Part shown: positions 8,743 through 35,993 of the stretch, piece by piece | Numbering within the stretch: position 1 is the first letter of the stretch | How the letters are laid out: each line of letters starts with the position of its first letter | DNA from: Opitutales bacterium | Lineage (GTDB): Bacteria > Verrucomicrobiota > Verrucomicrobiia > Opitutales > JABSRG01 | Reading direction: 5' to 3' | NCBI GenBank assembly: GCA_051117635.1 | Contig: JBNPEH010000014.1 | Location: 2,786 to 66,785 of the forward strand | DNA length: 64,000 nucleotides | Notes under the pieces: model-generated | Told to the model about the DNA's origin: nothing | The model's input: the letters and a program-made list of their open reading frames with translations, nothing else | Databases searched by the model: none | Program-made: the position numbers and the translations under genes

Positions 8743-8783
8743 TCCGACCCGGCAACCGGACCGCCCGACAGCGACGTCTTCGC

Positions 8784-10463
8784 TCAGCTTTCGGTTGACG
8801 GCGAGCCCAGCAGGCCATCCAGCTCAATCAGGATGGATTCCCGGCCTTCGACGAAGAGGAAGCGGTCGCTGGCCAGGGTGCGGTAGGCGGTTTCGAGCAG
8901 TTCCCGGGGAGGCCGCCGCATGGTCAGGAGCGTTTCCAGCCGTTCGGCCAGCCGGTTGGTGCGGCCGATAGCCAGTTCCAACCGGATCAGTTCGGTCAGG
9001 GCGGCCTGGTTGTCGGGATTGGCCCGGATGGCGGAGGCCAGCACCCGGTGTGCCTCGTCGTAATGCTCCAGATCCTTCAGGCGACGCGAGACGGCCAACA
9101 GGGTTTCCACCCGGAGGCCGGAGTTCTGAAGAAATTCCTTGAGATAGATCTCGCCCAAATCGTTCTGGCCTGCCCCGAAGTGGGCCACCGCCCGGAGGCT
9201 GCTGAAAATGGCGCTCTTTTCCTCGAGCCAGCGCGGCTTTTCCTTGAACAGTTCTTCGGCGAAGGTGATCGCCCCGGCGTAATCGCCGGCGACGACATGC
9301 GCCTCGATCAGGAGCAGTGCGAAGGTCGAGATATCGAACTCCTTCTCCAGCGCGTGGCCGTAGAGGCGCCGGGCCAGACTGACGTCGCCGGTGTCGGCGG
9401 CAAAATTGGCCAGGAGCTGGATGGCCAGTTCGTCGTTTGAGAACTGACGGATGACATTGTCGACCTCACGTTCCTTGCGATCCTCCTGACCGGAGTAATG
9501 GTGGGCGTAGATCAGCTCGATCCGCGGACCCGGCGAGAGCGGGCTGTTGATGGCCCGGAGTACGGCATACTGCCGGGCTTTGTCGTACTCTCCCCTTTCC
9601 CGAAAGAACCGGCTGAGCTGGATGTAGATGGGCTCGGCTTCGGGGAAGCGGTCAAGGGCGTTCTCCAGTTTATCGATGGCCAGCGTTTCCTGACCACGAT
9701 CCCAGCTGATCTGCGCCGAGAGCAGTACCCCGTCTATCTTGGATTCCAGGTTATAGCGCTGCAGGAACGCTTCCGCCTCGTCGAAATTACCGCGAAAATG
9801 GTAGGCACGGGCCGCGGCGAAAGCAATCAGATGGGCCAGATCCTCGCTTTCCGGGGCCGGGGTCAGCAACCGTTCTGCCACCGCGATCACCCCGGCATCA
9901 TTCTCGTGGTTGAGCATCAGGCTGAGGAGACGCCGGATGTAGGCCGCATTGCGCTCGTTGTAATCGATCCCCTGCCTCAGAAGATCGATGGCCAGATCCG
10001 GGCGCCGGATGCCGAATTCGTAGAACTCACTGAGAATCAGGCGGCCTTCGGTGTTTTCCGGAGACCGGACCAGACCGGTCCGCAGGAGGTGAAGCGCCCC
10101 GCGGAAATCCTGCTGCTCAATGGCCGTTTTGGCCTTTTCGATAAAGTAATCCCCCATCTCCTTACGGTGGGCCTCCTGCCGGAAGGGATAGGCCAGCATG
10201 TTCACATAGCTGGCTTCGTCGTAATTCCGCTTGTACTTGAAAAACAGAAGGAGCGCGAAAGCGCCGGCCAAGTAGACGATGAGGGCGGTTCCCGCCACGA
10301 CCAACCCGATTCGACCCCAGCGTAACCGGATCCGGACTTTCTGGCTGCTGAGACGCTCCTTTTCGGCGAAACCCAGCCAAATCGCTTTCCTGCCGGTAAC
10401 GCCCGGTTCTTTGGAATCGCGGTCCGGCGGGGGGGTGCTGTTCTGGGGAGCGTCTTCGGCCAT
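8784..10463 (-). CDS. Membrane-anchored TPR-repeat protein
   Basis: One N-terminal TM helix (IGLVVAGTALIVYLAGAFALLLFF) followed by repeated TPR-like A/Y/L-rich helical units. Divergent from the polysaccharide export genes. Confidence 0.7.
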   Translation of the reverse strand: MAEDAPQNSTPPPDRDSKEPGVTGRKAIWLGFAEKERLSSQKVRIRLRWGRIGLVVAGTALIVYLAGAFALLLFFKYKRNYDEASYVNMLAYPFRQEAHRKEMGDYFIEKAKTAIEQQDFRGALHLLRTGLVRSPENTEGRLILSEFYEFGIRRPDLAIDLLRQGIDYNERNAAYIRRLLSLMLNHENDAGVIAVAERLLTPAPESEDLAHLIAFAAARAYHFRGNFDEAEAFLQRYNLESKIDGVLLSAQISWDRGQETLAIDKLENALDRFPEAEPIYIQLSRFFRERGEYDKARQYAVLRAINSPLSPGPRIELIYAHHYSGQEDRKEREVDNVIRQFSNDELAIQLLANFAADTGDVSLARRLYGHALEKEFDISTFALLLIEAHVVAGDYAGAITFAEELFKEKPRWLEEKSAIFSSLRAVAHFGAGQNDLGEIYLKEFLQNSGLRVETLLAVSRRLKDLEHYDEAHRVLASAIRANPDNQAALTELIRLELAIGRTNRLAERLETLLTMRRPPRELLETAYRTLASDRFLFVEGRESILIELDGLLGSPSTES

Positions 10464-20835: not shown

Positions 20836-23800
20836 ATGGCCTTTCCAACCGCTTCATCCGAAACGCTCAGTCTGGAGAAGAAACGCCGGCTGTTCCGGCT
20901 GATGTTGACCAGTCGCCAGGGCGACCTGCGGGAGCAACGGCTGCTCCGGCAGGGCCAGGGCTGGTTTCATATCGCCGGGATGGGTCATGAGGGCATGGCC
21001 GTTCTCGGTGCGCTCCTCCGCGAGTCGGATTACGCCTTTCCCTATTATCGGGATCGGGCGCTGGCTCTGGCCAAAGGCATCACCACCGAGGATTTTGCGC
21101 GCGCATTCCTGGCCAAGCGCACCAGTTCCAGCGGGGGTCGGCAATTGACCGGCCACTTTTCCAGCCACATGCATCGGATTTTCAGCCACGCCTCACCCGT
21201 CGGGGCCCATGCCCTGCCCGCTGTCGGCTTTGGCTGGGGCATTCAATTGGACGGGCGGGACGACGTCGTTCTGTTGAGCCTCGGTGAGGCGGCCACCCGG
21301 CAGGGTGAATTCTACGAAGCGGTCTGTTTTGCCCAGGAGCACCGGCTGCCGGTCATCTTTGTCGTCGAGGACAACGGCCTGGCCATTTCCACCCATACCG
21401 AGGCCGGCACGCCGCGGACCCTCCAGCTGTTGGGCAACGACCGGTGGGTGGACGTGGACGGCCTCGATGTGGACGCGCTCCAGGCAGCCGGAAGTCGGGC
21501 GATTGAACGAGCGCGCGGCGGCGAGGGCCCGGGATACCTGTGGGTCCGCACCGCCCGGTTGCACAATCACAGCAGCACCGACGACCAGCGGCTTTATTTG
21601 ACCGAGCAGGAACAGGCTGCGTTGGAGGACCGCGATCCTGTCGCCCGTCTCCGTTCCGATCTCCTGGCTGCGGGTGAGGTGGATCGGGAGACCCTCGAGG
21701 CGGAGGAGGCCGACATCGCTGCGGAAATCCGTTCCATCTACGAACAGGTCGCCAGGGAAGAAGATCCGAAGGCGGAGGAACTCGTCCTGCACCTGGAAGG
21801 AGCGGCCCCCGAGCGAACCGGTCAGGAGGATGGTCCCGAGCTGCCCGATCCCTGCCGACTGGTGGACGCGGTCAATCTGACTTTCCGGCATGCGCTCGAA
21901 TCCCGTGAGGACGTCGTCTTCTTTGGCGAAGACATCGAGGACCCGAAGGGTGGGGTGTTCAACCTGACTAAGGGGCTCTCGTCCGATTTCCCCAAACGGG
22001 TGGTCAATGCGCCTGTCGCTGAGGCGACAATCTGCGGACTGGCCGTGGGTCTCGCCGCTTACGGTAAACGGCCCGTTTTCGAGCTTCAGTTCGTGGACTT
22101 CATCCACCCGGGCTGGAACCAGCTTTTCAACAACATGGCCAACCTCCGCTGGCGCACCTTCGGGGACTGGCGGTGCCCGGCCATTCTCTATGCCCCCTGC
22201 GGCGCCTACCTGCCGGGCGGAGCCATCTGGCACAGCCAGTCCGGAGAAAGTGCGCTGGCTCAGATTCCGGGCCTGCGGGTGCGGATGCCTTCCCGCCCGC
22301 ACGAGGCTCGCGAGGCCTTTCAGGAAGCTCTGGCCAGTGACGATCCGACCATCGTTCTCCTCCCCAAGCACCAGTTCTGGACCCGCCAGGCCGCGACACC
22401 GTCCGGGCGATCCGCCGGTATCCTGAGGGCGGTGCGTCGCCATACCGGCAACAGCCTGACGGTCGTCTCCTGGGGTAATCCGCTGGAGATCATCGATCAG
22501 GTCCTGGCCGACCGGGAGGACCTCTCCGGCGCCTTGGATGTCTATGACCTGGTTTCCCTCGCTCCCTGGGACCGCGAAACCGTGGCCGACTCGGTTCGCC
22601 GGACGGGCCGCCTGCTGGTTGTGCAGGAGGACACGCCGGCCTGCTCGATCGGTCAGCGGATCATCGCCGAACTGACCGGCGACCGCGCGGTGTTTGCCGC
22701 CCTGGTCGCCCCGCCGCGCCTGATCGCACGAGCCCCTGTTCCGATCGGCTTCAATCCCATTTACGAGTACGCCGCGCTCCCCGACCGTCCGGGTATCCAG
22801 GCTGCTGTCGACGCGTTGCTAGCCTGGTCGACCCCCGCTACCAACCGCCCGGTGGTTCCCCCCGCTTCCGCCGCTTCCGCCCCATCATCCCTGCCCATGA
22901 CTGATCAACCGCCGTCGCCGGCCGCCTCTTCCGGTCGCAAACAGATTAAGGTGCCCATCCTCGGCGAGGGTATTCGTGAAGCCCGGCTGGTCGCCTTGCT
23001 GAAGGAACCCGGCGAAGCCGTGGAGCCGGATGAAGCGGTTTGCGAAATCGAGACCGACAAGGCGGTCTTCCCCGTGGAAAGTCCCTGCGCGGGCACCTGG
23101 GAGGTCTGGGCCGTGGACGAGGGGGCCACCGTCAGCGTCGGGGATACCCTCGGTTCCCTTGTCCCGGATGATCCCGAACTGGCCGACGCCGAGCGTCCGT
23201 CTTCTTCCACGGCGGGGGTTGCGTCTGAGGATTCGGAGGGGGAGGGGGACGCCAACGAGGTGGCCCTGCGGCAGGCGCCCGGGCTCCCGGAAGGCGTTCT
23301 CCGGCAACTGCCCGGAATCGTGCCCGCGACCATCACCATTCAAGCTGCCTGGTCTGCCATCAAGGAAGCGCGCCGTGCGGCGAAGGAAGAGGCCGGTTCC
23401 ACCGGTGAAGCCCCGAGCCCCTCGCTGATGGTCGCCTGGTCAGTCACCCGGGCGATGCGCCAGCACCCTGTCTTTGCCTCGATCGTCAAGGGCCGGCAAC
23501 TCCTCTTCGATCCCGACGGCTTCGACCTCGGGGTGGCGGTCGCCCTGGATAACGACGCCCTGGAAACAGCCGCCGTCCGCAAAGCCGGTACCCTGGACTG
23601 GCCCCGGTTCCAGGAGGCCTACCGGGCTGCCGTCCGTGCGGTCCGGGCCGGCGAGGTAGCGTCCAAAGCCCGCGTTTCCCTGCAGCTTTCGTCTCTGGGC
23701 ACCTTTCCCGTCATTCATGCCGTTCCCATCGTCGTGCCTCCGGCCGTGGCGACCCTCTTTGTCGGTAATGCCCGGCTGAGGCCGCGTGAATCGAACGACG

Positions 23801-23961
23801 GTGTGCTGCATGAACCCGTGGTCGACCTCGTCCTGACCTTTGACCACCGCTGGGTTAACGGGGTGGGTGCCGCCGCTTTCCTCAACGATATCCGGCGGCG
23901 GATGGAGGAATTCGATCTCCAACATCCGGAGAAGGAACCCTCCGACAGCGGCCGGGCATGA
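20836..23961 (+). CDS. 2-oxoacid dehydrogenase E1alpha-E1beta-lipoyl-E2 fusion protein (single 1041-aa polypeptide)
   Basis: - aa 1 to ~330: E1 alpha TPP-binding region (SLGEAATRQGEFYEAVCFAQEHRLPVIFVVEDNGLAIS).
- aa ~345-680: E1 beta (VVFFGEDIEDPKGGVFNLTKGL, VVNAPVAEATICGLAVGLA).
- aa ~700-775: lipoyl domain with the CEIETDKAVFPVESP lipoyl-lysine motif.
- aa ~800-1041: acyltransferase catalytic domain with LTFDHRWVNGVGAAAFL. Confidence 0.85.
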   Translation: MAFPTASSETLSLEKKRRLFRLMLTSRQGDLREQRLLRQGQGWFHIAGMGHEGMAVLGALLRESDYAFPYYRDRALALAKGITTEDFARAFLAKRTSSSGGRQLTGHFSSHMHRIFSHASPVGAHALPAVGFGWGIQLDGRDDVVLLSLGEAATRQGEFYEAVCFAQEHRLPVIFVVEDNGLAISTHTEAGTPRTLQLLGNDRWVDVDGLDVDALQAAGSRAIERARGGEGPGYLWVRTARLHNHSSTDDQRLYLTEQEQAALEDRDPVARLRSDLLAAGEVDRETLEAEEADIAAEIRSIYEQVAREEDPKAEELVLHLEGAAPERTGQEDGPELPDPCRLVDAVNLTFRHALESREDVVFFGEDIEDPKGGVFNLTKGLSSDFPKRVVNAPVAEATICGLAVGLAAYGKRPVFELQFVDFIHPGWNQLFNNMANLRWRTFGDWRCPAILYAPCGAYLPGGAIWHSQSGESALAQIPGLRVRMPSRPHEAREAFQEALASDDPTIVLLPKHQFWTRQAATPSGRSAGILRAVRRHTGNSLTVVSWGNPLEIIDQVLADREDLSGALDVYDLVSLAPWDRETVADSVRRTGRLLVVQEDTPACSIGQRIIAELTGDRAVFAALVAPPRLIARAPVPIGFNPIYEYAALPDRPGIQAAVDALLAWSTPATNRPVVPPASAASAPSSLPMTDQPPSPAASSGRKQIKVPILGEGIREARLVALLKEPGEAVEPDEAVCEIETDKAVFPVESPCAGTWEVWAVDEGATVSVGDTLGSLVPDDPELADAERPSSSTAGVASEDSEGEGDANEVALRQAPGLPEGVLRQLPGIVPATITIQAAWSAIKEARRAAKEEAGSTGEAPSPSLMVAWSVTRAMRQHPVFASIVKGRQLLFDPDGFDLGVAVALDNDALETAAVRKAGTLDWPRFQEAYRAAVRAVRAGEVASKARVSLQLSSLGTFPVIHAVPIVVPPAVATLFVGNARLRPRESNDGVLHEPVVDLVLTFDHRWVNGVGAAAFLNDIRRRMEEFDLQHPEKEPSDSGRA

Positions 23962-24734: not shown

Positions 24735-25418
24735 GTGGCTACCCCTCAACAAACCGCTGTCGTTGTCGAGGATGAGCGCCTTTTCCGCTGTGTCCTGGAA
24801 AACGTCCTCAGCAATGAGCTCGGCCTGACCGTATACAGCGCTGCCGACGGCGACACGGCGCTGACGCTTTGCCGGGAGCATCAGCCCGACCTCGTCGTCC
24901 TCGACCTCGGCATTCCGGCCCGCAACGGTCTGGCCGTTGCCGAGATTTTGCTGAAGGAACGTCCCCGGCTCCGCATCATCGCCGTGAGCAGCCGTTCGGA
25001 CACCTATACGATGTACTGGGTGAATAAATTCGGCCTGCGCGGTTTCGTGGACAAGCGGGCTGAGACGCCGGAGAACCTCGAGCAGGCTTTCCGGCAGGTC
25101 CTGCGGGGGGAAACCTATTACTCGGATGTCGTCAGGACCCGGCACGACCTGCTGGTTCGCGATGATTATGCCTTCAGCAAAATTCTCAGCGAGCGGGAAC
25201 AGGAACTCCTTCACTATTTCGGGCTGGGTATGTCCAACGAGGAAGTGGCGGAATTCGCCCGGATCGGCGAAAAGACTGCCCAGACCCACCGCTACAACAT
25301 CATGCGGAAACTGAAGCTGCACAGCACGCCCGAGCTGCTCCGCTATGCCACCCAAAACGGCTTCGACCTCTACGACCCGCGGGATCGGGTGGAGCCGGAG
25401 GGCTCACACGGCGGGTGA
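24735..25418 (+). CDS. Response regulator, NarL/FixJ (LuxR HTH) family
   Basis: Receiver domain (VVVEDERL..., DLVVLDLGIP phospho-Asp region) plus C-terminal LuxR HTH (LSEREQELLHYFGLGMSNEEVAEFARIGEKTAQTHRYNIMRKL). GTG start. Confidence 0.85.
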   Translation: MATPQQTAVVVEDERLFRCVLENVLSNELGLTVYSAADGDTALTLCREHQPDLVVLDLGIPARNGLAVAEILLKERPRLRIIAVSSRSDTYTMYWVNKFGLRGFVDKRAETPENLEQAFRQVLRGETYYSDVVRTRHDLLVRDDYAFSKILSEREQELLHYFGLGMSNEEVAEFARIGEKTAQTHRYNIMRKLKLHSTPELLRYATQNGFDLYDPRDRVEPEGSHGG

Positions 25419-28400
25419 ATCGGCCTTCAGCCCTTGCTCCAGTTTCTCCAGCGCACGTGACAATCGGAGGATTTCCCCGTCGGTTTCCACCCATGCCTCC
25501 CGTTCCGGAAACTGGCCCGATCGCAACCGGTCCTCAATGGGTCTCAGGATGTTGGATACATTGGAAAAGCCCACCAGGTCGCACTTGCCGGCAATGTGGT
25601 GCACCGCCCGGGCTGCCGCCTTCGGGTCTTCGCCGGTCAGGGCCGCCCGGGCCTGAGCCCACCCGTTGCGAATATCACGCCGCAGGGTCCGGACCGCCTC
25701 CAGGCGGGCTGTCGGGTCGTCCTTGCGATAGAACAGGTAGTCGGTTCGCAGCGGCGGGTCGTCGGCGGCCGGGGCGGCGGCGTCGCTCTCGGAAGTCGGG
25801 ATTGCTGTCTCACTCATGGATTGGGTCGACCGGCCGAATGCCTTCGTCAGGCCACTCAAGACACCACGGAGGTGGTCGGGGTCCACCGGTTTGCTGATAA
25901 ACCCGTCCATTCCCGCGTCCAGGCAGGCCTTCCGGCTTTGTTCGGTGGCATAGGCGGTCACCGCGAAGATCGGTACCGAGCGCAGGGTTTTGATGCGGCG
26001 GGCGAATTCGGGTCCCTCGCCGTCGGGCAGGCTGAAGTCCAGTAGCACCGCGTCGAATCGATCCTGGCGAAACACCCTCAGCCCGTTTTCGCCGTCCCCG
26101 GCGACCTGGGAGGTGCATCCGCACGCCTCCAGCATCTCCGCAATCACCTGCCGGTTGTAGACGTCGTCCTCGATGACCAGGACATGCAGGTCCAGCGGTT
26201 CGGACGATGCGAGGGGCAGGGCAACCCCGCCCGCCGGCTCGGAGACCTGCCCGCCCTCCTCCGCCTGAACGGGGGAGCTGTCCGTTTCCGAAAGCGTCAG
26301 TTCGAAACTGAAGCAGGTGCCCTGACCCGGTTGCGAGTCCACTTTCAGGGAACCGCCCAGACTCAGGGTGAGGGCGCGTGCGATGGATAGCCCCAGGCCG
26401 CTGCCGCCGCCCGGCATCAGTCGCCGCCCGGAGGAACCCTGCGCATAGGGCTCGAATATCCGGGCGCGCTCCTCTTTGGGAATGCCGAGCCCCGTGTCTT
26501 CGATGCTGAAGCGGGCGGTCAGCCGGCCCGGTCGGGAGCCGCCCCGGGTCTCGCAATGGACCCGGATGCCCCCGGTTTCCGTAAATTTGATGCCATTGGA
26601 AACCAGGTTGGCCAGGACATCGAGCAGGATCTGTCGGTCGACCAGAACGGGCGCTTCGGCGCCCTTGTAGTCGATCTTCAAATACAGCCCTTTGGCCTCT
26701 ACCTGATAGGCGAAGAGACTCTCCAGGGTGGTCAGGACCGACTCCAGCGCGACCGGTTCGGGGTTGGGGACCACTTTGCCGGATTCGATTTTGGAGAAGT
26801 TGAGCACGTCGTCGATATGACCCTTGAGGTATTGGCCGCAGGCCAGGATGCGCTCCAGAGAGGGCCTCAGTTCCGGGTGCTCCGCCCGTTTCAGCAGCAG
26901 TTGGCTGGTGCCGATGATGCCGTTGAGCGGGTTGCGAATGTCGTGGCTCATGCGTGCGACAAAGGCCGACTTCGCCTTGCTCGCGCGGTTCAGGTTTTCA
27001 TTGGCCTTGATCAGTTCGAGCGTCCGGGAACGGACTGATTCCTCCAGGATGGCGTTGATCTTGCGCAGGCGGCGAGTCCGCCAGTGGCCCAGGGCCAGCA
27101 GACCGATTACCGCGACGAAGGCATACCCGGTGTAGGCTCCCCAGGTGCGGTACCAGGGTGGGGCGATGCTGAAGCGCAGTTCGGCCGGCGGGGAAAGCTG
27201 GCCGGCCAGATCCCGTTGACGTACCTCGAAGACGTAGTCTCCCTCGCGCAGGTTCGTGAAATCGCGGTAGGTTTGTCGGTTCCAGTTGGACCAGTCCGAT
27301 TCGAATCCCCGCAACCGGGTCTGGAACTCCACGTGGCCGCCCAGATGGAATTGCGGCGCTGCGAATGCGAAGCGAAGGTCGTTGAAGGCGAAGGGCAGTT
27401 GCTCCAGTGCCTCGCCCGTCAGCGGCAGGGAGGCCCGTTGGCCGGGAGCATCCGGGTCGCGGTGCGCCAGCCGGCGCAGCAGGGGAGGCTCCGGTTGTTC
27501 GGGCTCCGCAGGCGGCTCGACTGTAGTCCGGATTAATCCCGTGCTGGCATTGAGCCAGAGGGTGTCTTCTTCGGCAACCAGACTCCACACCTTGCCGCCG
27601 AACGATCCGGGCAGGGTGCGCAGGGTGCCGACCTCGATGGGATCGTCCGGAAGCGCACCGCGAAGCCACAATAATCGGGCCCGTTGCCTGTCCTCGGCCA
27701 GATGGTAAACAAAGGCTTCATGGCCACCCGGGGCTGATCCCAGGACCGAGTTCTGCGCATTTATCCCGGGTGAAAGGATCCGCTCCCGCCGGCCAGGATT
27801 GTGCGGATCGTGGATTTCAAAAAGACCCGCCTCGTCCAGCACCAACAGCCGTTGGTTGATTTTTGCGAACTGCGGGGGATTGCGTCGGTTCGGCAGCGAG
27901 CCCTCACCGCTGAGACGCGTCGTCACGAACCGATAGCCCGTCCCGGAAGGGTGGATACCCACGCGGTATACGCCGTTGTTGACTCCGGTCAGAAGCAGTT
28001 GGCCGTCCGCCAGCTCGACGAATGAGGAAATCGGCCCGGGAATATCTTCAAGCACCCCGCCCGGGACCCAACCCGAAGCCTCCCGCAGATAGTGGCGGGC
28101 GCCGGTGTTGCTGCCGGTAAACAACAAATCATCGTAGGTTTTTGATGGATACACAGTGAACACCTGCCCGGCGTCCCCGTCGATGGTGGTCAGTCTCCCG
28201 CCGTCCCAGGCCAGCAATCCCGCCTGGGAGCCAATCAGCAGCGGTCCTCCCCGGGGCGTGGCCAAATCAAAAGCAGGTCTGCTGAGGCCGGGTACCTGCC
28301 GGAACCGGGGGACCAGAGAATCAGCTGCCCGATCCAGGCGATAGATGTTGTTGCCCGCCGCGACATGAAGGTTGTTGTCGTACCGCGCGGCTGCCAGAAC

Positions 28401-29534
28401 CGGGGTCTCCGCCAAGCCCAGGCGCTCGTCGAGACGATAGGCGTTGAGGTCGAGAGCCACCCGGGTCAGTCCGTTCTGGCCGGCCACCCACAAGCCCTGA
28501 TCCCTGTCGAGGAGCGTGTTGTTGGCCCGATCATCCGTCAGCCCCTGCCCCCCCTTCAACTGATAGCTGAGACGCCCGTCGGCCTCGATGACCAGGACAC
28601 CCGCCTTGAACGTGGGTAAGGCCAGTCGTCCCCCGGGCAATGGCTCGACGGCCATCAGCAGGGCATCAACCAGCGTATCATCGCCTTCGGTCGAAAAGCG
28701 CCGCCATGCGGAGCTGTCTCTCAGGTACAGACCGTTTCTGAGTGTTCCAATCATGGTTATACCGTCCTCCCGATCCATCCGAATACCCACGATCACATTG
28801 CCGGGAAGCGCCTCTGCGGCAAAGCGTCTATCCCATCGGTCCCCCAGGAAGCGATAAAGGCCGTCACCGGCTACGCTGAGAAACGAGATGTTGCCTGACC
28901 GAACGGGTGAAATTCTGGATGCCGCCTCAAACCGGGTCAGGGAGAAGGCCGTTCCATCCCAGCGGTAGACGGTCTGGTTGCCGAAAAAGAGGGTTTGCCC
29001 GAGGTCTGCGTGATGATGCACCGCCCAGATCGGCTCGATCGGCAAATCCCCGTCCTCCAGATGGTCGAGCAGGCTGGTGTACCGGTAATCCCCCTCGGGC
29101 GTGGCCGCAAAGTAACCCATTTCATCAAGAGCCCCAATCCAGATGCGCCCGCCGGGTCCGCTGTCGATACCCCGCACGTTCGTCGCCCCGCCCGGATCGT
29201 GCTGGGTCCAGTGCTGACCGTCGAACCGAACCACCGCCTGGTTGCCGACCCAGATCTGGCCCTGCGCATCCTGGTGGACCACGAAGTTTTCCCATTCGGA
29301 GCTGAAGGCTTCCGCTCCGAACTGCTCGGTCATGGGTAGGCCCGCTTCACCGTTCAGGATGCACCGGGACAGCCCCCAGATCAGCAGCAGCGCGACCCGG
29401 CGGCCATCCGACCTGAGTCCCCTGCCGTTAGCACGAACCCGGTCCCCTTGCCTTCGGGAAAAACGCATCCACCGCATTCCTTCCGTCCGGCCCCGAACGC
29501 CCAGACCTGTTTTTACTAAAATTTTTGTAAACAT
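25404..29534 (-). CDS. Hybrid sensor histidine kinase with periplasmic beta-propeller/Y_Y_Y sensor, HisKA-HATPase, receiver and HPt domains
   Basis: - Repeated propeller-type units and a Y_Y_Y-like segment (FQTRLRGFESDWSNW...GDYVFEVRQRD).
- TM helix, H-box SHDIRNPLNGIIG, and G-boxes (DTGLGI, GGSGLGLSI).
- Receiver (VLVIEDD...AVLLDFSLPDGEG) and HPt (HHIAGKCDLVGF).
- The true start may be the internal MRWMRF/MRF (29477/29468).
- The 3' end overlaps the regulator gene by 15 nt (convergent). Confidence 0.85.
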   Translation of the reverse strand: MFTKILVKTGLGVRGRTEGMRWMRFSRRQGDRVRANGRGLRSDGRRVALLLIWGLSRCILNGEAGLPMTEQFGAEAFSSEWENFVVHQDAQGQIWVGNQAVVRFDGQHWTQHDPGGATNVRGIDSGPGGRIWIGALDEMGYFAATPEGDYRYTSLLDHLEDGDLPIEPIWAVHHHADLGQTLFFGNQTVYRWDGTAFSLTRFEAASRISPVRSGNISFLSVAGDGLYRFLGDRWDRRFAAEALPGNVIVGIRMDREDGITMIGTLRNGLYLRDSSAWRRFSTEGDDTLVDALLMAVEPLPGGRLALPTFKAGVLVIEADGRLSYQLKGGQGLTDDRANNTLLDRDQGLWVAGQNGLTRVALDLNAYRLDERLGLAETPVLAAARYDNNLHVAAGNNIYRLDRAADSLVPRFRQVPGLSRPAFDLATPRGGPLLIGSQAGLLAWDGGRLTTIDGDAGQVFTVYPSKTYDDLLFTGSNTGARHYLREASGWVPGGVLEDIPGPISSFVELADGQLLLTGVNNGVYRVGIHPSGTGYRFVTTRLSGEGSLPNRRNPPQFAKINQRLLVLDEAGLFEIHDPHNPGRRERILSPGINAQNSVLGSAPGGHEAFVYHLAEDRQRARLLWLRGALPDDPIEVGTLRTLPGSFGGKVWSLVAEEDTLWLNASTGLIRTTVEPPAEPEQPEPPLLRRLAHRDPDAPGQRASLPLTGEALEQLPFAFNDLRFAFAAPQFHLGGHVEFQTRLRGFESDWSNWNRQTYRDFTNLREGDYVFEVRQRDLAGQLSPPAELRFSIAPPWYRTWGAYTGYAFVAVIGLLALGHWRTRRLRKINAILEESVRSRTLELIKANENLNRASKAKSAFVARMSHDIRNPLNGIIGTSQLLLKRAEHPELRPSLERILACGQYLKGHIDDVLNFSKIESGKVVPNPEPVALESVLTTLESLFAYQVEAKGLYLKIDYKGAEAPVLVDRQILLDVLANLVSNGIKFTETGGIRVHCETRGGSRPGRLTARFSIEDTGLGIPKEERARIFEPYAQGSSGRRLMPGGGSGLGLSIARALTLSLGGSLKVDSQPGQGTCFSFELTLSETDSSPVQAEEGGQVSEPAGGVALPLASSEPLDLHVLVIEDDVYNRQVIAEMLEACGCTSQVAGDGENGLRVFRQDRFDAVLLDFSLPDGEGPEFARRIKTLRSVPIFAVTAYATEQSRKACLDAGMDGFISKPVDPDHLRGVLSGLTKAFGRSTQSMSETAIPTSESDAAAPAADDPPLRTDYLFYRKDDPTARLEAVRTLRRDIRNGWAQARAALTGEDPKAAARAVHHIAGKCDLVGFSNVSNILRPIEDRLRSGQFPEREAWVETDGEILRLSRALEKLEQGLKADSPAV

Positions 29535-29578: not shown

Positions 29579-29803
29579 ATGACACACACTAAATCCATCC
29601 GTTACACCATCCTTGGCGTTCTCGCCACTCTCTTCCTCACGCTGGGTCTGACCAAAGCCGCCGCTGCCGTCGACCCCCTCACGGACAGCGACGCCGTCGT
29701 TTCACCGACTGATGCAGACCTGACCCCCGAGACCCGCGACGAATACTTCCGGGCTTCCGCCAACATCGCCTCCAACTGCTACTATTCCAAGGAAACTGCC
29801 TGA
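29579..29803 (+). CDS. 74-aa small protein with Sec-type signal peptide; candidate precursor/partner of the downstream YcaO
   Basis: The N-terminus has the n/h/c layout MTHTKSIRY-TILGVLATLFLTLGL-TKAAAA|VDP, followed by a D/T/P-rich middle and the C-terminal ...FRASANIASNCYYSKETA. The stop lies 10 nt before the YcaO start. Confidence 0.6.
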   Translation: MTHTKSIRYTILGVLATLFLTLGLTKAAAAVDPLTDSDAVVSPTDADLTPETRDEYFRASANIASNCYYSKETA

Positions 29804-29813
29804 GCCTCCGTTC

Positions 29814-30725
29814 ATGATTTCCCTCGCACCATTCAAATATCGTCGGGTCACTTCGGATACCGGGGGCCCGATCGATCGAATCGCCTACCGCGATATCGAA
29901 ATCTTCGGGAAGCCGGCCGTCCAGGCCACGGCCTTCCTCAAGCCCGGCCTGAACTCGTTTCCGTGGGATAAGCAGCTCTACGGAAATGCAGACGGCACCG
30001 GGACCCACCTGTCCGCCCAGATTGCCCGCTACATGGCTGTTTCCGAGTCGATGGAGCGCTGGGCCTTCTACGAAAGCCACTGGTCCGACCGGGCTTCCAC
30101 TTACGGGTTCGACGTCGACCCCACCACCAACGGCATGTCGGCCTACCCGGGCGTCCTCGCCCGCCAGGCCCGCAAAAAGGCCCGCATGGAGGCCATCGAG
30201 CGGCATGCGGTGACTAACTGGTGGGAAGGCCTGCTGCCCATTCAGCACTTCAACACCGGGCTCGCCGGCGTTTACGGATTTGAGATCAAACATGCCTTCG
30301 GCAATGCCGCTGTAGTCGTGCTCTGGCACGAGTTCGAGATCCAGGGCCGGGTTCACTACGCCTACGGCTTCGCGTCGGATGAAAACCGCTCCGGCGCCGT
30401 CTGGAAAGCGACCATCGAACTGGATCGCAACATTCACGTGTTGCGCAACTTCCACCAGGCCGACGGATCCGCCAACCTCGACCAGTACACCCGCCTCAAT
30501 GATTTCACGGAGCGGCGGGCCGTCTTCTTCGGCAGCCAGGAAGGCTTTGAGCTCTTCCAGGACCGGATGATGCAGCAACCGACCGGAAGCCCGGTCGAGC
30601 CGGAGGTCCTGTACGACGGCGAAATCACCGGGCCGTGGAGTAACTTCGCCACGGTCTGGCGGGTCGCTTTCAAACCCGCCTCCCAGGCCTATCTCGATCC
30701 CAACGAGATGTACTTTATTTTTTGA
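29814..30725 (+). CDS. Minimal stand-alone YcaO-domain protein (303 aa)
   Basis: Three YcaO-like blocks are present: GNADGTGTHLSAQIARYMAVSESMERW, TTNGMSAYPGVLARQARKKARMEAIERHAVTNWW and YGFASDENRSGAVWKATIELDRN. As I recall them, the corresponding E. coli YcaO blocks are TNGKGATKKAALASALGEYFER, SNGMSAGNTRNEARVQGLSEVFER and FGAHPDFGVALERTVTEL. No signal peptide and no extra domains. Confidence 0.75.
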   Translation: MISLAPFKYRRVTSDTGGPIDRIAYRDIEIFGKPAVQATAFLKPGLNSFPWDKQLYGNADGTGTHLSAQIARYMAVSESMERWAFYESHWSDRASTYGFDVDPTTNGMSAYPGVLARQARKKARMEAIERHAVTNWWEGLLPIQHFNTGLAGVYGFEIKHAFGNAAVVVLWHEFEIQGRVHYAYGFASDENRSGAVWKATIELDRNIHVLRNFHQADGSANLDQYTRLNDFTERRAVFFGSQEGFELFQDRMMQQPTGSPVEPEVLYDGEITGPWSNFATVWRVAFKPASQAYLDPNEMYFIF

Positions 30726-30759
30726 CACCAAGGAAGGCACGTCGAGATAACCATGTAAT

Positions 30760-30794
30760 GGGCCGCCCGATTATTTAGGGCGGCCCTTTTTTTT
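30760..30794 (+). terminator. Rho-independent terminator of the peptide-YcaO cassette
   Basis: 9-bp GC stem gggccgccc / gggcggccc with a 9-nt loop, followed by 8 T. Confidence 0.8.
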
Positions 30795-31052: not shown

Positions 31053-33488
31053 TCAGCCGAGCCGGAGTGCCTGGCTCGGTTCGATACGGGCGGCCCTTCG
31101 TGCCGGTTGCCAGCCCGCTGCCAGACCCACCAGCGTCAGGAATAGCGCCACCAGGATGAAAAGAACGGGATTGGTGGGAGAAACACCTGTCAGGACGGGG
31201 CGCAAGGCCAGCCCGAGCCCGAGCGCGAGGAGGACGCCAAGGCTCAGCCCGATCGAAATCTGGGTACCCACCAGTCGCAGGACATGATTGCGGATGGACC
31301 CGCCATCGGCGCCGAGGGACATGCGAATCCCGATTTCATGGCGCCGGGCTTCCACCGTGTGCCGGACGACCGTATACAGGCCCAGGCCGGCCAACAGCGT
31401 GGCCACGATGCCGAAGACCGAAAAGACCTGACCGAGGACCCGGTGGAGGGCGAGCTGTTCGCTGAGGATGGCGGCCAGCGGCTCCAGCGGCGGCACGGGC
31501 AGGTCTGATCCCAAACCGGCAAAAACGCGCTGCAGGGGGCCGGCCAGATCGGCGGCCTCGCCGGGGTTTTTCGGACGTAGGAGGAGATGCAGGCTGCCGC
31601 TGGCGCCCTGGCTGTAGTTGAGGTAAAGCCCGGCCGCATTGTCGAGGGTGCCGAGGCCCTGCATGCCCAGATCGGGGACAATGCCGATGATCCGGATCCA
31701 GGGCGTTGTTTCCCATCCCGGTTCCCCGCTGTGTGCCTTCAGGCGATGCCCCACCACCGGGTCCACGCCCTCGGCGATGAGGCGGCGGGCCAGGCTGTCG
31801 TTGATGACGGCGAGGGGCTCCCCAATGGCGCGGTCCTGTGGTCGGAAGGTCCTGCCCCGGAGCGGCCGCACATCGAAAGCCTCGAAGAAGCCGGACGACA
31901 CCCAGGCCGCCCGACAAAAGGGAAAGTGGTCCTGGGCTGGATATGTGCGCCCTTCCACGGCGAAGTAGGTAAAACCGCTGCCGGTACCGGGCGGGTGGGT
32001 CGTCAGGGCTGCCCGTTCTATCGCCGGCTCCCGGTTCAGGCCGTCCAACAGCGCGAAAAGAACCCGAAGCCGGGCGGCCCGGCCGGGCAGGCCCGTTTCC
32101 TCAAGGGGCAGTCGGGCGGTGAGCACCCGCTCTTTCAAAAAAACCGATTCCCGCTCTTGAATCCGGATGAACGAGCTGACCATGAGGACCGCCCCGAGAA
32201 TGAGGGCGAAAGCGAGGGCGAACTGGGTCACCACCAGCCAGCGGCTGACTCTCCCGAGCCCGGCGGCCGCGACGTTGGGTGCATTCTCCTTGATGAGGGG
32301 GCCCACCTCCAGACGCGACAAACGCCAGGCGGGCAGGGAGCCGGCTGCCAGTGCCGTCAGGACGGTGATCAGGCAGATGAAGGCGACGACCCGCCCGTCC
32401 AGCTCGAAGACGAGCCAGAAGGGAACGGACCCGGACTGGCGGATGGCCCAGTTGATCAGGTCGATTCCCCACAGGCTGATGCAGAGCCCGGCGGCGGTTC
32501 CGAGGAAGGAGAGGACCAGACTGCCCGTCATGACCTGGGCGACGAGGTGCCATCGCCGGGCGCCGCTCGCAAGCCGTATCGCAAAGGAGCGGACCTGGCC
32601 GGCGGACCGGGCCACCATCAGATTGGCTACGTTGGCGCAGGCGATGCCGAGGACCAGAAGCACCGCCAGAAAGAGGACCAGCGCGGTTTGCTGCAGCGGG
32701 CCTTCGGTGTATTCCTGGTTGAACAACTTGAGCACCGGTACGACGCCCTGGTTGTAGAGGGGCCGTTGACGCTGAAGATCGGACCCGATGGCGGCCAAGG
32801 CCACGCGTGCGGTATCCAGGCTGATGCCGGCCTTCAATCGACCGACGACCTGAAGGTTGCCCCAGCGGGTCGGCTCAGGGTTGTCGGCTTGCAGGGTCAG
32901 GGGCGTCCAAAGGTCCGCATCGGACGGAAAGCCGAAGCCGGGGGGCATGACGCCCGTCACGCGGACAGGTTCCCCGTTCAGCAGAATCCCGGTACCCGGG
33001 GCCTGGGGGGTCCGTTGCAGGATCTCCACCCAGACGCGGTGGCTGATTAGGACGCCGGGTGCTGCATCGCCTCCCGGCTCGAACGCGTCCCCAAAGGCCG
33101 GCTCTACCTCGAGAAGCCGGATGGTGTGAGGTTCGATCGGCACGCCGGTCAGGCTGACGGGAGCGCTGTTTCCGACCTGTAGCAGCATGGTCCGGCCGGG
33201 CAGGTACGCGGCGAGGTCCTCGAAGACGGCATTGCCGGCCCGCCAGTCCCGGTAGTCCGCCTCCGTTACGCCCAGTCCGCGATAACCGAGGGTTTCATTG
33301 TCTACTTCGAGATGAATCAACCGGTGGCTGTCCGGATAGGGCAGCGTCTTGAAATAAACCGCGTTGACGACCGAAGCCAGCGTGATGACCAGGCTGATCC
33401 CGATTCCGAGCACCAGCGTGGCAAGCAGGGTAAACCCCGGGCTGGCCCGCAGTTGGCGAATACTGATCGTGAGGAAATGGCGCCACAT
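31053..33488 (-). CDS. ADOP-family (duplicated MacB/FtsX-like) ABC transporter permease
   Basis: 811 aa. N-terminal IRQLRASPGFTLLATLVLGIGISL helix, two MacB-type periplasmic domains and two FtsX 4-helix modules (ACANVANLMVAR..., IGIRMSLGAD...). Confidence 0.85.
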   Translation of the reverse strand: MWRHFLTISIRQLRASPGFTLLATLVLGIGISLVITLASVVNAVYFKTLPYPDSHRLIHLEVDNETLGYRGLGVTEADYRDWRAGNAVFEDLAAYLPGRTMLLQVGNSAPVSLTGVPIEPHTIRLLEVEPAFGDAFEPGGDAAPGVLISHRVWVEILQRTPQAPGTGILLNGEPVRVTGVMPPGFGFPSDADLWTPLTLQADNPEPTRWGNLQVVGRLKAGISLDTARVALAAIGSDLQRQRPLYNQGVVPVLKLFNQEYTEGPLQQTALVLFLAVLLVLGIACANVANLMVARSAGQVRSFAIRLASGARRWHLVAQVMTGSLVLSFLGTAAGLCISLWGIDLINWAIRQSGSVPFWLVFELDGRVVAFICLITVLTALAAGSLPAWRLSRLEVGPLIKENAPNVAAAGLGRVSRWLVVTQFALAFALILGAVLMVSSFIRIQERESVFLKERVLTARLPLEETGLPGRAARLRVLFALLDGLNREPAIERAALTTHPPGTGSGFTYFAVEGRTYPAQDHFPFCRAAWVSSGFFEAFDVRPLRGRTFRPQDRAIGEPLAVINDSLARRLIAEGVDPVVGHRLKAHSGEPGWETTPWIRIIGIVPDLGMQGLGTLDNAAGLYLNYSQGASGSLHLLLRPKNPGEAADLAGPLQRVFAGLGSDLPVPPLEPLAAILSEQLALHRVLGQVFSVFGIVATLLAGLGLYTVVRHTVEARRHEIGIRMSLGADGGSIRNHVLRLVGTQISIGLSLGVLLALGLGLALRPVLTGVSPTNPVLFILVALFLTLVGLAAGWQPARRAARIEPSQALRLG

Positions 33489-33566: not shown

Positions 33567-35993
33567 TTATTCATAGCGCAATGCCTGCAGGGGATGAATC
33601 TCACGCGAGGCGCGCCGGGCCGGCAGCAGGCAGGCGGCCAGCGCGCTCAGGCTCAGCAGGACAAGGACTCCCCCGAAGATCGCACTGTCGAAGACCGGGC
33701 CGATCAGGACGGGGCTCAGGACGCGGGTGGCGTGGGCCAGTCCTACGGCGAGGATCAGGCCGAGGGCCAGGCCGATTGCGACCTGGCCCAGTCCATGCCG
33801 GATAATCATGGCGAAAATGGTGGGACTGTCCGCCCCCAGCGCGAGCCGGATACCGATTTCCTGCCGGCGCAGGTTCACAGTATGGGCCATCAGCCCGTAC
33901 AGGCCGACGGAGGCCAGAAACAACGCGATGCCGCCGATCGTCAGGAGGAAGACCCCCGCGACTTCGAGGCCTTCGAAGACCTGGCGGATGCTTTCCCGTG
34001 GAGTCATGGCGAAATAAAGCGGGAGGTCCGGGTCCACCGCGCGGATACACCGGCGGAAAACCGGAAGGAGCGCGTCCGGGGTTCCGGAAGCGCTGAGCGC
34101 CGTCAGGGTGGCGAACCGTTTGGGCTGCTGGGCAAAGGGGATCAACAAGCCGCCCACCGGACCGGACTCCACCTCGGATAGGTCGCCCGCGAAGGCGGGA
34201 CCGCACAATCCGACGATCGCTGCGTCTACCCGTCCCTGTTCGCCCTGCTGGATGTTCAGATACCGGCCCAGGGGGTCTTCCCCGGGAAACAGCTCCTCGG
34301 CCAGGATCCGGTCGATGATCACGACTTTCCGACTATTCCTATCATCGTTTTTGTTAAAACGCCGGCCAGCCAATATGGGAATCTTGAATACGTCCGGAAA
34401 TCCGGGACTGACGGCGTCGTACCGGACGCTCGTCGGGTTCACGGGGGCTTCGGCTGCGGGGCTCGTACGCGGCGTCACATCCATCCAGCCGGATTCGAGC
34501 GCCCGAAACCGGGTCGTGAGGGCGGCGGCGGCCACCTCAGGCTGGCGGGTCACCTGCTTCAGCAACCGGTCGGCGAAGGTATTGATGTCGGCATCCGTCG
34601 GATAGGCTCCCTCAAAGAGCCCGAATCGAGCGGTCAGGACGTCATCCGTTTCAAAGGGCATGCGCTGGTTCATCAGGTCCCGAAGGTGGGTGACCATGAG
34701 GCCGGCAAGGATGAGGAGGGCGCAAGATACGGCGATCTGGAGAATGACCAGCCAGCGGCTGAGACGGCCCAGGTAGAGTCCGGAACTGGTCCGGCTGTCA
34801 TCCTTCAGAACGGCCAGTACCTCGATGCGCGAGGCACGCAGAGCCGGCAGGATCCCGGCGCAGAGCGCGGCCAGGATTGAGATGAGGACGGAGAGGCCGA
34901 AGGCGGCCGGGCTGTAATTGAAATCGATCCAGTAGGGTAGACCCAGGGCATGGAACCTTTCCTCCACCCCATCGAGTTCCCACATCTGATGGATGACTCC
35001 CAGGACCAGCCCGAGTACACTCAGGATAAGGCTTTCGAGGAGGACGCCACTGACAATCCTGCGCCGGGAAGCCCCCAGAGCCACCCGGATGCCCAATTCG
35101 CGCACCCGGGCAGAACTGCGGGCCAGCATCAGGTTGGCGACATTGGCGCAGGCGATGAAGAGAACCGCCATCGCCACCACCATGAGCGTCAGGTTGACGG
35201 TGAAGAAATCGTCGGGAAGCTGGTCGAAATTGACGCCTGACAAGACGATTCGCGGGGGTTCCTCCGGCGGGCCGTCCTCGGCTTTCCGGTGGGCGACCGC
35301 CAGCCGGGTCAAAGCCTCCTCCGCGACTCCGGTCGCGATGCCAGGCCGGACAGCCCCCACCAGATTCACCATCCTGACAGCATCCCTGGGTTGAAGGGCC
35401 AACCAGGCTTCCTCCTTCACGGGAAAGGCGAAGGAATCCGGGAGCACCCCCACGATGGTTCCCGCGTTGCCGTTGATTCTGTGCGGACGCCCGAGAACGA
35501 GGGGATCGCTTTGAAAGTCCCGGGCGAAGACCGCCTGGGTGATCAGCAGCGCCTTGGGAGCGTCCGGCTCGAAGTCCCCGGGTTGAAAAAGGCGACCGTG
35601 AACCGGCTTTACATCGAGGAGGTCGATAACCCCTTCGGTCATGAAGGTACCCTGGTAGCGGCGCGGTGTCCGCCCGTCGCTCACGTTGATCGTGCCGACG
35701 AAGTAGCCGCCAAGGGCGGTCATTACCGACTGTCGGGCCTGGATGTATTGGAAATCCTGATACTTCAGTGGCCGCCCGTAGCCGGATTTTTCATCATCGG
35801 CATGGAAACCCTGATATATGGGCCGGCCGTCGCCGGTTTCCAGGCCGCCGGACGTCAGGTTCAGGAGGATGACCAGATTTCCCGAGACCGTGCCGATGCC
35901 CAGGGCAAGCGTGATGACAGCCAGACCGGAGAACCAGGGGGTCTTCCGGATCAGGCGCAGGGCGAAGCGAAGGTCGTGCCAGAGGGATGGCAT
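33567..35993 (-). CDS. ADOP-family (duplicated MacB/FtsX-like) ABC transporter permease
   Basis: 808 aa paralog of the previous gene with the same architecture (LWHDLRFALRLIRKTPWFSG..., ACANVANLMLAR, IGIRLALGAD). Confidence 0.85.
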   Translation of the reverse strand: MPSLWHDLRFALRLIRKTPWFSGLAVITLALGIGTVSGNLVILLNLTSGGLETGDGRPIYQGFHADDEKSGYGRPLKYQDFQYIQARQSVMTALGGYFVGTINVSDGRTPRRYQGTFMTEGVIDLLDVKPVHGRLFQPGDFEPDAPKALLITQAVFARDFQSDPLVLGRPHRINGNAGTIVGVLPDSFAFPVKEEAWLALQPRDAVRMVNLVGAVRPGIATGVAEEALTRLAVAHRKAEDGPPEEPPRIVLSGVNFDQLPDDFFTVNLTLMVVAMAVLFIACANVANLMLARSSARVRELGIRVALGASRRRIVSGVLLESLILSVLGLVLGVIHQMWELDGVEERFHALGLPYWIDFNYSPAAFGLSVLISILAALCAGILPALRASRIEVLAVLKDDSRTSSGLYLGRLSRWLVILQIAVSCALLILAGLMVTHLRDLMNQRMPFETDDVLTARFGLFEGAYPTDADINTFADRLLKQVTRQPEVAAAALTTRFRALESGWMDVTPRTSPAAEAPVNPTSVRYDAVSPGFPDVFKIPILAGRRFNKNDDRNSRKVVIIDRILAEELFPGEDPLGRYLNIQQGEQGRVDAAIVGLCGPAFAGDLSEVESGPVGGLLIPFAQQPKRFATLTALSASGTPDALLPVFRRCIRAVDPDLPLYFAMTPRESIRQVFEGLEVAGVFLLTIGGIALFLASVGLYGLMAHTVNLRRQEIGIRLALGADSPTIFAMIIRHGLGQVAIGLALGLILAVGLAHATRVLSPVLIGPVFDSAIFGGVLVLLSLSALAACLLPARRASREIHPLQALRYE

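Follow-up and report, generated by a model that had tools for sequence, protein, structure and literature searches.

A small Sec-signal peptide, a minimal YcaO-fold enzyme and a sensor kinase are inherited together in Opitutales, suggesting a modified-peptide signalling system in Gram-negative bacteria

To our knowledge YcaO enzymes are known for making antibiotics and for modifying proteins, and not for making signals. The agr (AgrD/AgrB/AgrC/AgrA) and lantibiotic (NisA/NisRK) systems are Gram-positive autoinducing peptide circuits, and signalling by modified peptides through membrane kinases is, so far as we are aware, textbook biology in Gram-positive bacteria and almost unknown in Gram-negative phyla. 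Here we analyse a stretch of 64,000 nucleotides from an Opitutales bacterium (GenBank assembly GCA_051117635.1, contig JBNPEH010000014.1, positions 2,786 to 66,785), called the window below, in which an open reading frame (ORF) of 74 aa (29579..29803, + strand) is followed after a gap of 10 nt by one of 303 aa (29814..30725, +). [quoted passage not shown] Each ingredient has precedents, i.e. partner-independent YcaOs, Sec-exported RiPPs and kinase-coupled RiPPs. Literature searches on YcaO with Verrucomicrobia or Opitutales, signal peptides, histidine kinases, stand-alone YcaOs and quorum sensing found no description of the family, and Pfam and NCBIfam have no entry for the peptide, which supports the earlier view that the system is undescribed.

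The closest described enzymes are the YcaOs that act without a partner protein: BotC/BotCD of bottromycin and AmdY of streptamidine biosynthesis, the methanogen YcaO that thioamidates a glycine of McrA, and E. coli YcaO. The 303-aa protein has their fold, as judged by modelling. An AlphaFold model built on 36 homologs has a predicted local distance difference test score (pLDDT) of 92 and a predicted template modelling score (pTM) of 0.90, and when it was compared with the PDB using Foldseek all nine matches at E<=0.001 were YcaO enzymes (probability 1.00, TM-score ~0.5). These are the M. kandleri and M. jannaschii enzymes and the heterocyclase LynD (6CI7/6CIB, 6PE3/6PEU and LynD 4V1V). The nearest solved structures are thus the methanogen thioamide-forming YcaOs, by a narrow margin over LynD that makes this a weak indicator.

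Sequence searches of all PDB chains, made with the single protein and with a family profile, returned no YcaO, the sole match being McbD with an E-value of 0.3; the tie to YcaO therefore rests on the fold comparison and on Pfam. A profile check had been suggested in the preliminary description. With PF02624 the window enzyme scores 25.4 bits, just under the cut-off of 25.7, with residues 99-147 alone aligned; the same profile matches 36/36 family members at E<=0.01 (best 3e-9). Genome-mining tools that use curated cut-offs would probably miss the system, because the enzyme lies just below the Pfam threshold. The identical protein is already recorded as a hypothetical protein of an Opitutales metagenome-assembled genome.

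The enzyme belongs to a compact, divergent subfamily of ~295 aa. There are more than 325 clusters at 90% identity; at 50% identity there are 319 clusters at E<=1e-30 and 712 at E<=1e-3, and nearly all are of full length at 290-310 aa. The window family (~295-303 aa) is thus smaller than the matched archaeal chains (360-385 aa) and E. coli YcaO (586 aa).

Residue conservation was computed over 146 representatives (clustered at 50% identity). S77, E78, E81, R82, W83, G107, P112, E126, E129, R130, W136, W137, E202, R205, R235, G273, W275, W282 and R283 are all at least 96% conserved, and each of the five active-site glutamates at least 97%. The blocks previously picked out by eye (SESMERW, TNGMSA...RMEAIERHAVTNWW and ATIELDRN) are all present. 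In E. coli YcaO the ATP/Mg2+-binding residues are reportedly E75, E78, E199, E202, R203, R286 and E290, as described by Dunbar and colleagues in 2014. The putative ligands in the window enzyme are E78, E81, R82, E126, E129, R130, K198 and E202. On inspection E78-x-x-E81-R82 corresponds to E75-x-x-E78-R79 of the E. coli protein, and in an hhalign alignment E126/E129/R130 correspond to E199/E202/R203 and K198/E202 to R286/E290; K198 is Arg in most family members. The ATP/Mg2+ glutamates and arginines are thus shared with the partner-independent YcaOs. E. coli YcaO thioamidates ribosomal protein uL16, and its E202A variant is a published inactive form (PMC13063428). From these alignments the ATP/Mg2+ site of the trimmed YcaO looks intact and the enzyme looks catalytically competent.

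The protein ends ...DPNEMYFIF, and the family consensus there is [YF]F-x-[FW], i.e. there is no PxPxP or proline-rich tail, as had been pointed out before. It has no signal peptide and is therefore presumed to be cytoplasmic. Gene neighbourhoods were surveyed in 85 related loci, where every ORF of 130 aa or longer was clustered in an unbiased way. These flanks have no conserved gene for an E1-like/Ocin-ThiF partner, TfuA, a dehydrogenase, a protease or an exporter, in agreement with the absences remarked on for the window. The enzyme thus differs from the SagD-type cyclodehydratases of thiazole/oxazole-modified microcins in having no match at the level of NCBIfam TIGR03604 (13 bits against a cut-off of 219), no E1-like/Ocin-ThiF partner, no FMN dehydrogenase and no PxPxP. 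It resembles the partner-independent YcaOs in that a partner with an RRE (a recognition element for RiPPs) is not found nearby. The thioamide YcaOs associated with TfuA differ in that the flanks here have no conserved TfuA or sulfur-carrier gene. The M. kandleri and M. jannaschii genomes, so far as we know, also have no TfuA, so its absence does not exclude thioamide chemistry. Three features set it apart from the partner-independent YcaOs: the aromatic C-terminus of the family, the Sec-type leaders of the putative substrates, and a sensor kinase that is encoded alongside (63/63 assessable loci). If the module works as proposed below, this would be a new, very small, partner-independent YcaO clade.

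The 74-aa ORF is not a chance ORF. A leave-one-out profile of the leader region gives it 37.4 bits, against a maximum of 4.1 for 178 composition-matched shuffles, and it is the sole leader match in the whole window. Precursors were gathered by position first and then by leader profile; a phmmer search of the ORFs of related loci with the window peptide gave no match. The profile finds a small ORF in 85/89 sources, nearly always as the immediate upstream neighbour of the enzyme gene and in the same orientation, and almost nothing elsewhere in the flanks of the related loci. The preliminary description had asked whether a small signal-peptide ORF with a conserved C-terminus always precedes the enzyme. 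The ORF is there in those 85 sources; its C-terminus is variable, with the last Cys near the end.

Alignment of the small ORFs shows that M1 and G23 are invariant and A28 and D32 nearly so. The family has an initial Met, an n-region with Lys or Arg, ~16 uncharged residues that include the invariant Gly, a small-x-small site, the sequence A-A-(D/E)-x-(L/F)-D-P and then a variable C-terminal part. Across 92 unique precursors the n-region carries a charge of +1 to +3, the h-region has ~16 residues and a small-x-small site is present in 69. In the window peptide the Sec-signal-like leader comprises residues 1 to ~30, with K5 and R8 in the n-region, an h-region from I11 to L24 and then TKA-AAA; the conserved D32-P33 (29672-29677) follows. 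Features of the claimed Sec signal are seen family-wide by these heuristics. Among RiPP precursors the family is unusual in that its leader looks like a Sec signal, and export by Sec appears likely from these sequence features. Bufferins are a precedent for Sec-exported RiPPs in which modification in the cytoplasm precedes export (PMC11626156).

The core is variable. In the window it comprises residues ~35-74, with a single cysteine, Cys67 (29777-29779), placed 7 residues before the C-terminus. The core contains Cys in 77/92 precursors, and in 82/85 sources with the architecture seen in the window (type I) one or more precursors bear Cys. The share of Cys is 5.7% among core residues and 0.56% among leader residues, a ratio of ~10, and the median distance of the last one from the end is 7 residues. 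The core is repeated in tandem in related loci L031 (precursor at 6764-6988), L049 (6697-6987), L087 (6704-6955) and L047 (6809-6979), and L080 (6598-6978) likewise has a precursor with repeated core units. The repeats include DGGNGNTACAIY four times in L049, APDCSTYCD twice in L031, and elsewhere APSSNCVAPCFIL and DGDDEPFPDRS twice each. This suggests that one precursor yields several mature peptides. The leaders in L047 and L080 are atypical and were overlooked by the leader profile.

In one clade the precursor gene is present twice in tandem, as an 'A' type that ends ...P-x-C-(I/V)(I/V)-x-x and a 'B' type that is Cys-free and Gly-rich. An Opitutales clade that seemed to have no Cys was considered as a case against a Cys target; for that clade this was rejected on finding a Cys-bearing second precursor just upstream, whereas for the type II loci described below the argument stands. 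As a separate observation, L027 has a second leader-bearing small ORF (7919-8134; MKNILIFILGLLSTFLLSIGLSDAAARLDPVSHDKDLQSFL) downstream of the YcaO-like gene, and both of its precursors are Cys-free.

A conserved leader, a variable and sometimes repeated core, and strict adjacency to a modifying enzyme together give the signature of a RiPP precursor, and to this extent the RiPP-like nature first proposed for the pair is supported. It is probable, on the pattern of these sequences, that the peptide is the substrate of the enzyme. Alternatively the YcaO might modify another protein (the kinase, a binding protein or a housekeeping protein) or be a non-catalytic scaffold, the small ORF being an unrelated, co-transcribed secreted peptide. 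YcaOs that act on whole proteins do exist (uL16 and McrA are targets), the nearest structures to the window enzyme are methanogen McrA-type YcaOs, and the flanks have no leader-binding RRE-type partner. Against this, peptide and enzyme stay adjacent across two phyla and down to ~30% enzyme identity while every other neighbour changes, and the leader/core pattern with repeated cores is typical of enzyme substrates. A role purely as scaffold is unlikely given the strong constraint on the catalytic residues. We regard this alternative as very improbable.

Divergent from the pair is the gene of a hybrid sensor histidine kinase (25404..29534, - strand; 1376 aa as the longest ORF), the large hybrid kinase mentioned in the preliminary description. 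It has an N-terminal hydrophobic segment, a periplasmic sensor of ~750 aa ending in Y_Y_Y (731-790), a transmembrane segment, HisKA (854-919), HATPase_c (966-1081), REC (1118-1224) and Hpt (1281-1367), the domain limits being those of Pfam. Beyond it lies a gene for a 227-aa LuxR/NarL-type response regulator (24735..25418, +; Pfam Response_reg 1.1e-18, GerE 5.6e-14), convergent with the kinase gene and overlapping its 3' end. The kinase sensor region matches only the periplasmic sensors of Bacteroides hybrid two-component systems (4A2L, 3V9F and 3OTT), which are similar in size; the part of it that matches them is its Y_Y_Y domain. Unlike those systems, the output here is REC plus Hpt with a separate LuxR-type regulator rather than a fused AraC domain, and the kinase adjoins a peptide/YcaO operon rather than a polysaccharide-utilisation locus.

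The flank survey found the enzyme in 85 loci, the kinase in 63, the regulator in 57 and a downstream PAS hybrid kinase in 38, and no further conserved gene. A divergent adjacent kinase of ~1200-1330 aa is present in 63/63 loci that have enough upstream DNA, and in 57 loci a homolog of the LuxR-type regulator lies beyond it at the same position. Homology to the sensor domain of the window kinase extends to 53/63 loci, or 55 if L003 and L004, where the ORF call was over-extended, are included; the other clades keep the architecture with a diverged sensor. The peptide/enzyme pair is thus one half of a conserved module, the other half being the hybrid kinase and the LuxR-type regulator, and the kinase/peptide/enzyme arrangement is ancestral in all sampled relatives. 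The earlier picture of a peptide and YcaO cassette is right as to the pair and wrong as to a self-contained two-gene unit.

One contig of 78 kb (Ga0265323_10000030; L153, 1-10876, and L112) has two kinase/peptide/enzyme units in tandem. Their enzymes are 46% identical, their kinases align in the catalytic core only, and their peptides differ, with one precursor in the first kind of unit and two in its neighbour. A single LuxR-type regulator was detected on this contig (~411-1025 in L153). Two ORFs in L153 at first taken as regulators were both ruled out by BLAST.

In 38/85 loci the next gene downstream of that for the YcaO-like protein encodes a cytoplasmic PAS hybrid kinase, which has one or two REC domains. 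Examples are L001 7077-9353 (REC-PAS-PAS-HisKA-HATPase_c), L017 8138-9895 (PAS-HisKA-HATPase_c-REC) and L005 6929-9232. This kinase may be a further component of the phosphorelay. It is absent from the window, where the same position is taken by a terminator and then convergent permease genes.

A genome scan found relatives in at least 334 species representatives. The best 80 of these all belong to the Opitutales lineage and include a cultured strain, Horticoccus sp. 23ND18S-11 (the source of L031). Many representative clusters are merely 33-37% identical to those of Opitutales, and among the proteins retrieved by a profile of these divergent clusters the few named ones are from Bdellovibrionota (Pseudobdellovibrio, Bacteriovoracaceae and strain FG-1). 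This branch has a second layout (type II), in which a small membrane kinase gene (seen in seven sampled loci) diverges from a small ORF, an SBP_bac_5 gene and the enzyme gene, which overlaps or abuts the stop codon of the SBP_bac_5 gene. SBP_bac_5 is the oligopeptide/dipeptide-binding family. Its gene lies directly upstream of the enzyme gene in at least 19 loci, the protein has a lipoprotein signal in 3/4 loci inspected, and a small ORF bearing a signal peptide precedes it in 11/11 loci with enough sequence. The type II peptides are recognizably related, since 6/10 score >10 bits on a leader profile made from type I alone (e.g. L094 ...FLSLGLVKIAGKLDPLARKS...). Their cores are Gly/Asn-rich and mostly Cys-free. 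In L091 a CHASE2-guanylate cyclase gene (7937-10315, -) converges on the YcaO-like gene.

Between the two architectures the peptide and enzyme are constant, a membrane kinase is present wherever the sequence sufficed, and the extracytoplasmic binding module is exchangeable. Such a module nevertheless accompanies the peptide in both. The coupling of the peptide to a periplasm-sensing kinase persists across phyla, the sensor apparatus has been exchanged between branches and a whole block has been duplicated, and these observations favour sensing of the peptide by the kinase. We hold this reading tentatively, as a possibility somewhat short of probable.

The same evidence bears on the possibility that the small protein is an uncleaved, signal-anchored modulator in the inner membrane, whose modified C-terminus faces the periplasm and tunes the kinase as MgrB does PhoQ. 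The h-region of ~16-19 residues could act as an anchor, 23/92 precursors have no small-x-small context, the synteny with the kinase is tight, and the problem of crossing the outer membrane disappears. We consider this improbable. In most members the DP motif is immediately preceded by a canonical A-x-A-type site, the tandem repeated cores suggest the release of several products, and type II loci encode a binding protein for a soluble ligand.

The divergent intergenic region contains a candidate operator, a 16-bp palindrome (29514..29529) of 7-2-7 geometry, TACTAAA-AT-TTTTGTA, which precedes the start codon of the peptide gene by 65 nt. The exact palindrome of the window, generalized as TTAC-N8-14-GTAA, was found in 8/84 loci only, and after a k-mer scan it was replaced by TAC-N10-GTA. 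This motif occurs in 34/70 unique upstream regions, against a mean of 2.9 (maximum 7) in shuffled sequences and 0/70 in gene-body controls, i.e. an enrichment of ~12-fold over chance, and its positions cluster at -63 to -65 and -84 to -87. The largest clade has TACCGGA-AT-TCCGGTA at the same distance from the peptide start, and other clades have related AT-centred palindromes of roughly equal length in the same upstream region (e.g. CACCTGCATTTAGGTG). A 7-2-7 inverted repeat of TAC-type heptamers is the site architecture of the NarL family, so the palindrome fits a regulator of GerE type. We consider use of the palindrome by the regulator slightly more probable than the contrary, judging from motif and geometry.

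In three loci of the largest clade, copies of the palindrome (TACCGGAAnTCCGGTA) are spaced exactly 20 bp apart, i.e. two helical turns. Counted from the YcaO start, the three copies in L009 lie at about -312 to -272 and the three in L061 at about -290 to -250; L020 has two. This phasing suggests that in some species several regulator dimers bind cooperatively. The operator also bears on the start of the kinase. The longest kinase ORF begins at 29534, 5 nt from the candidate operator, which would then fall within its first codons; the true start is therefore probably the ATG at 29477 (M20, MRWMRF...) or that at 29468, upstream of the hydrophobic segment RRVALLLIWGLSRCIL.

We propose the following mechanism. 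The 74-aa precursor would be made in the cytoplasm, where the partner-independent, ATP-dependent YcaO would modify its C-terminal core by activation of a backbone amide, in the window most likely at or next to Cys67 to give, for example, a thiazoline; the chemistry may differ among clades. The leader would double as a Sec signal for export of the modified peptide, and cleavage, probably near TKA|AAA, would give a periplasmic or extracellular peptide that begins near the conserved DP motif. This peptide would bind as ligand to the divergent kinase, at its large periplasmic beta-propeller/Y_Y_Y sensor. The kinase would then pass phosphate by way of the REC and Hpt domains that it carries itself to the LuxR/NarL-type regulator, which would bind the 7-2-7 palindrome and control the peptide/enzyme operon and probably the kinase promoter, closing a feedback loop. 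The complete loop, in which the cognate kinase senses a Sec-exported, YcaO-modified peptide and the regulator provides feedback, is likewise offered as a tentative model. Conversion of Cys to thiazoline is the obvious guess for the window peptide. Thioamide, amidine or new chemistry stay live, because there are Cys-free cores and the nearest structures are glycine-thioamidating YcaOs; chemistry on cores such as ...NCYYSKETA or on Cys-free, Gly/Asn-rich cores could be new for the YcaO superfamily.

Several points weigh against this model. Each of its steps is a proposal from sequence and model data, and cleavage of the signal peptide was assessed heuristically, from the charge of the n-region, the length of the h-region and the -3/-1 rule. 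A simple Cys-to-thiazoline reaction does not fit the mostly Cys-free cores of the divergent branch. With these and the 'B' precursors having no Cys, no single chemistry covers all clades, and the residue modified may be one other than Cys. The strict TAC-N10-GTA is missing from half of the upstream regions, and the clade variants were judged by eye. No response regulator adjoins the kinase in the four type II loci inspected (L091-L094). Beta-propeller/Y_Y_Y sensors are known as glycan sensors of Bacteroides and not as peptide sensors. If the peptide acts between cells, the model does not account for its passage across the outer membrane. Lastly, synteny was sampled mainly in one order, Opitutales, and could partly reflect vertical inheritance; the variation of the downstream genes and the existence of a cross-phylum branch argue against inheritance as the whole explanation.

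The properties of the sensor and of the cores also suit another explanation, that the two-component system merely regulates a RiPP with a different role (a periplasmic metal-binding peptide or an antimicrobial) while the kinase senses a glycan, a metal or envelope stress. This kinase sensor class is known for glycan sensing, and the operator and regulator would be no less suited to simple transcriptional control. Metallophores too are bound by SBP_bac_5 proteins, examples being MbnE for methanobactin and NikA. Cys pairs (C-x2-4-C, in 47/92 cores) combined with periplasmic targeting resemble the bufferin metallophores. On the other side, the flank survey shows no conserved gene for a transporter, for immunity, for a TonB receptor or for an ABC permease, and the type II cores mostly have no Cys. 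Moreover, the tandem duplication couples distinct peptides to distinct sensors, and the sensor apparatus has been swapped between phyla while peptide and enzyme stayed constant; both are easier to understand if sensor and peptide are matched. We judge the regulated-RiPP explanation rather unlikely. With the bufferins themselves (PMC11626156) the module shares Cys-containing cores, a Sec-type leader and modification in the cytoplasm before export (proposed here). Bufferins use an MNIO (DUF692) enzyme with DUF2063, neither of which is among the conserved flank genes here, where a YcaO is found instead. Compared with the bufferins the present precursors are shorter, there are no DoxX or sigma/anti-sigma genes, a sensor kinase is linked, and the type II cores are mostly Cys-free.

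Returning to the proposal that the kinase senses the modified peptide, its closest functional parallels are the agr and nisin systems. Like them, the module is a compact unit with divergent promoters, in which a precursor is combined with its own maturation enzyme, a membrane histidine kinase and a response regulator. The peptide is variable with a Cys a few residues from its C-terminus, it has an N-terminal membrane-targeting leader, and there is an upstream site for the regulator (putative here). The differences are equally plain. No protein is homologous: a YcaO takes the place of AgrB, a LuxR/NarL-type regulator that of a LytTR regulator, and a HisKA hybrid with a giant periplasmic sensor that of a polytopic HPK10 kinase; the hosts moreover are diderm. 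By analogy the module at most works like an agr-type circuit, and is not a member of that family; the signalling is inferred.

Taken further, the module might be a diderm peptide-pheromone system of quorum-sensing type, in which the minimal YcaO replaces AgrB-like maturases and general Sec a dedicated exporter; this is speculative, and we favour it less than we do sensing of the peptide as such. It is similarly speculative that the signal would be read in the periplasm, where Opitutales would use the giant beta-propeller hybrid kinase, and the branch with Bdellovibrionota names an OppA-like lipoprotein with a small kinase. The variable cores, tandem paralogous units and clade-specific operators would then be separate 'pherotype' channels.

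If the signalling model is true, these peptides would be a new class of Sec-exported ribosomal peptides, and there would be a candidate ligand for one member of the large and mostly orphan family of beta-propeller hybrid kinases. Verrucomicrobia, a group common in soil, in freshwater and in the gut, would also have a channel for communication or self-sensing, as probably would predatory Bdellovibrionota. Read more modestly, as a kinase-regulated RiPP, the pair is a small biosynthetic system of two genes that occurs in at least 334 species-level genomes.

The peptide/enzyme operon ends in an intrinsic terminator (30760..30794, +), called strong in the preliminary description. A 9-bp G+C stem with a 9-nt loop occupies 30760-30786 (arms GGGCCGCCC and GGGCGGCCC) and is followed by U8 (30787-30794). 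The RNA fold has a free energy of -22.8 kcal/mol (z = -2.29 against shuffles), in keeping with that description. A consensus terminator scan overlooked this hairpin because of its 9-nt loop. The suggestion that the cassette sits on a deletion or insertion scar is rejected, since neither composition nor synteny supports it: the G+C content is 0.57-0.63 in the cassette and 0.60-0.68 in the flanks, and the kinase/peptide/enzyme order is ancestral in the sampled relatives. A plasmid search gave no match.

Two adjoining genes converge on the cassette from the far side of the terminator (31053-33488 and 33567-35993, both -). Each encodes a protein of ~810 aa with a MacB-like periplasmic core and FtsX permease domains, and no ATPase gene was seen between them; these permeases are not among the gene families conserved in the 85-locus survey. 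On the other side of the locus, upstream of the regulator gene, an ORF of 1041 aa (20836-23961, +) appears by eye to be a fusion of the alpha and beta parts of a 2-oxoacid dehydrogenase E1 with a lipoyl domain and an E2 catalytic domain.

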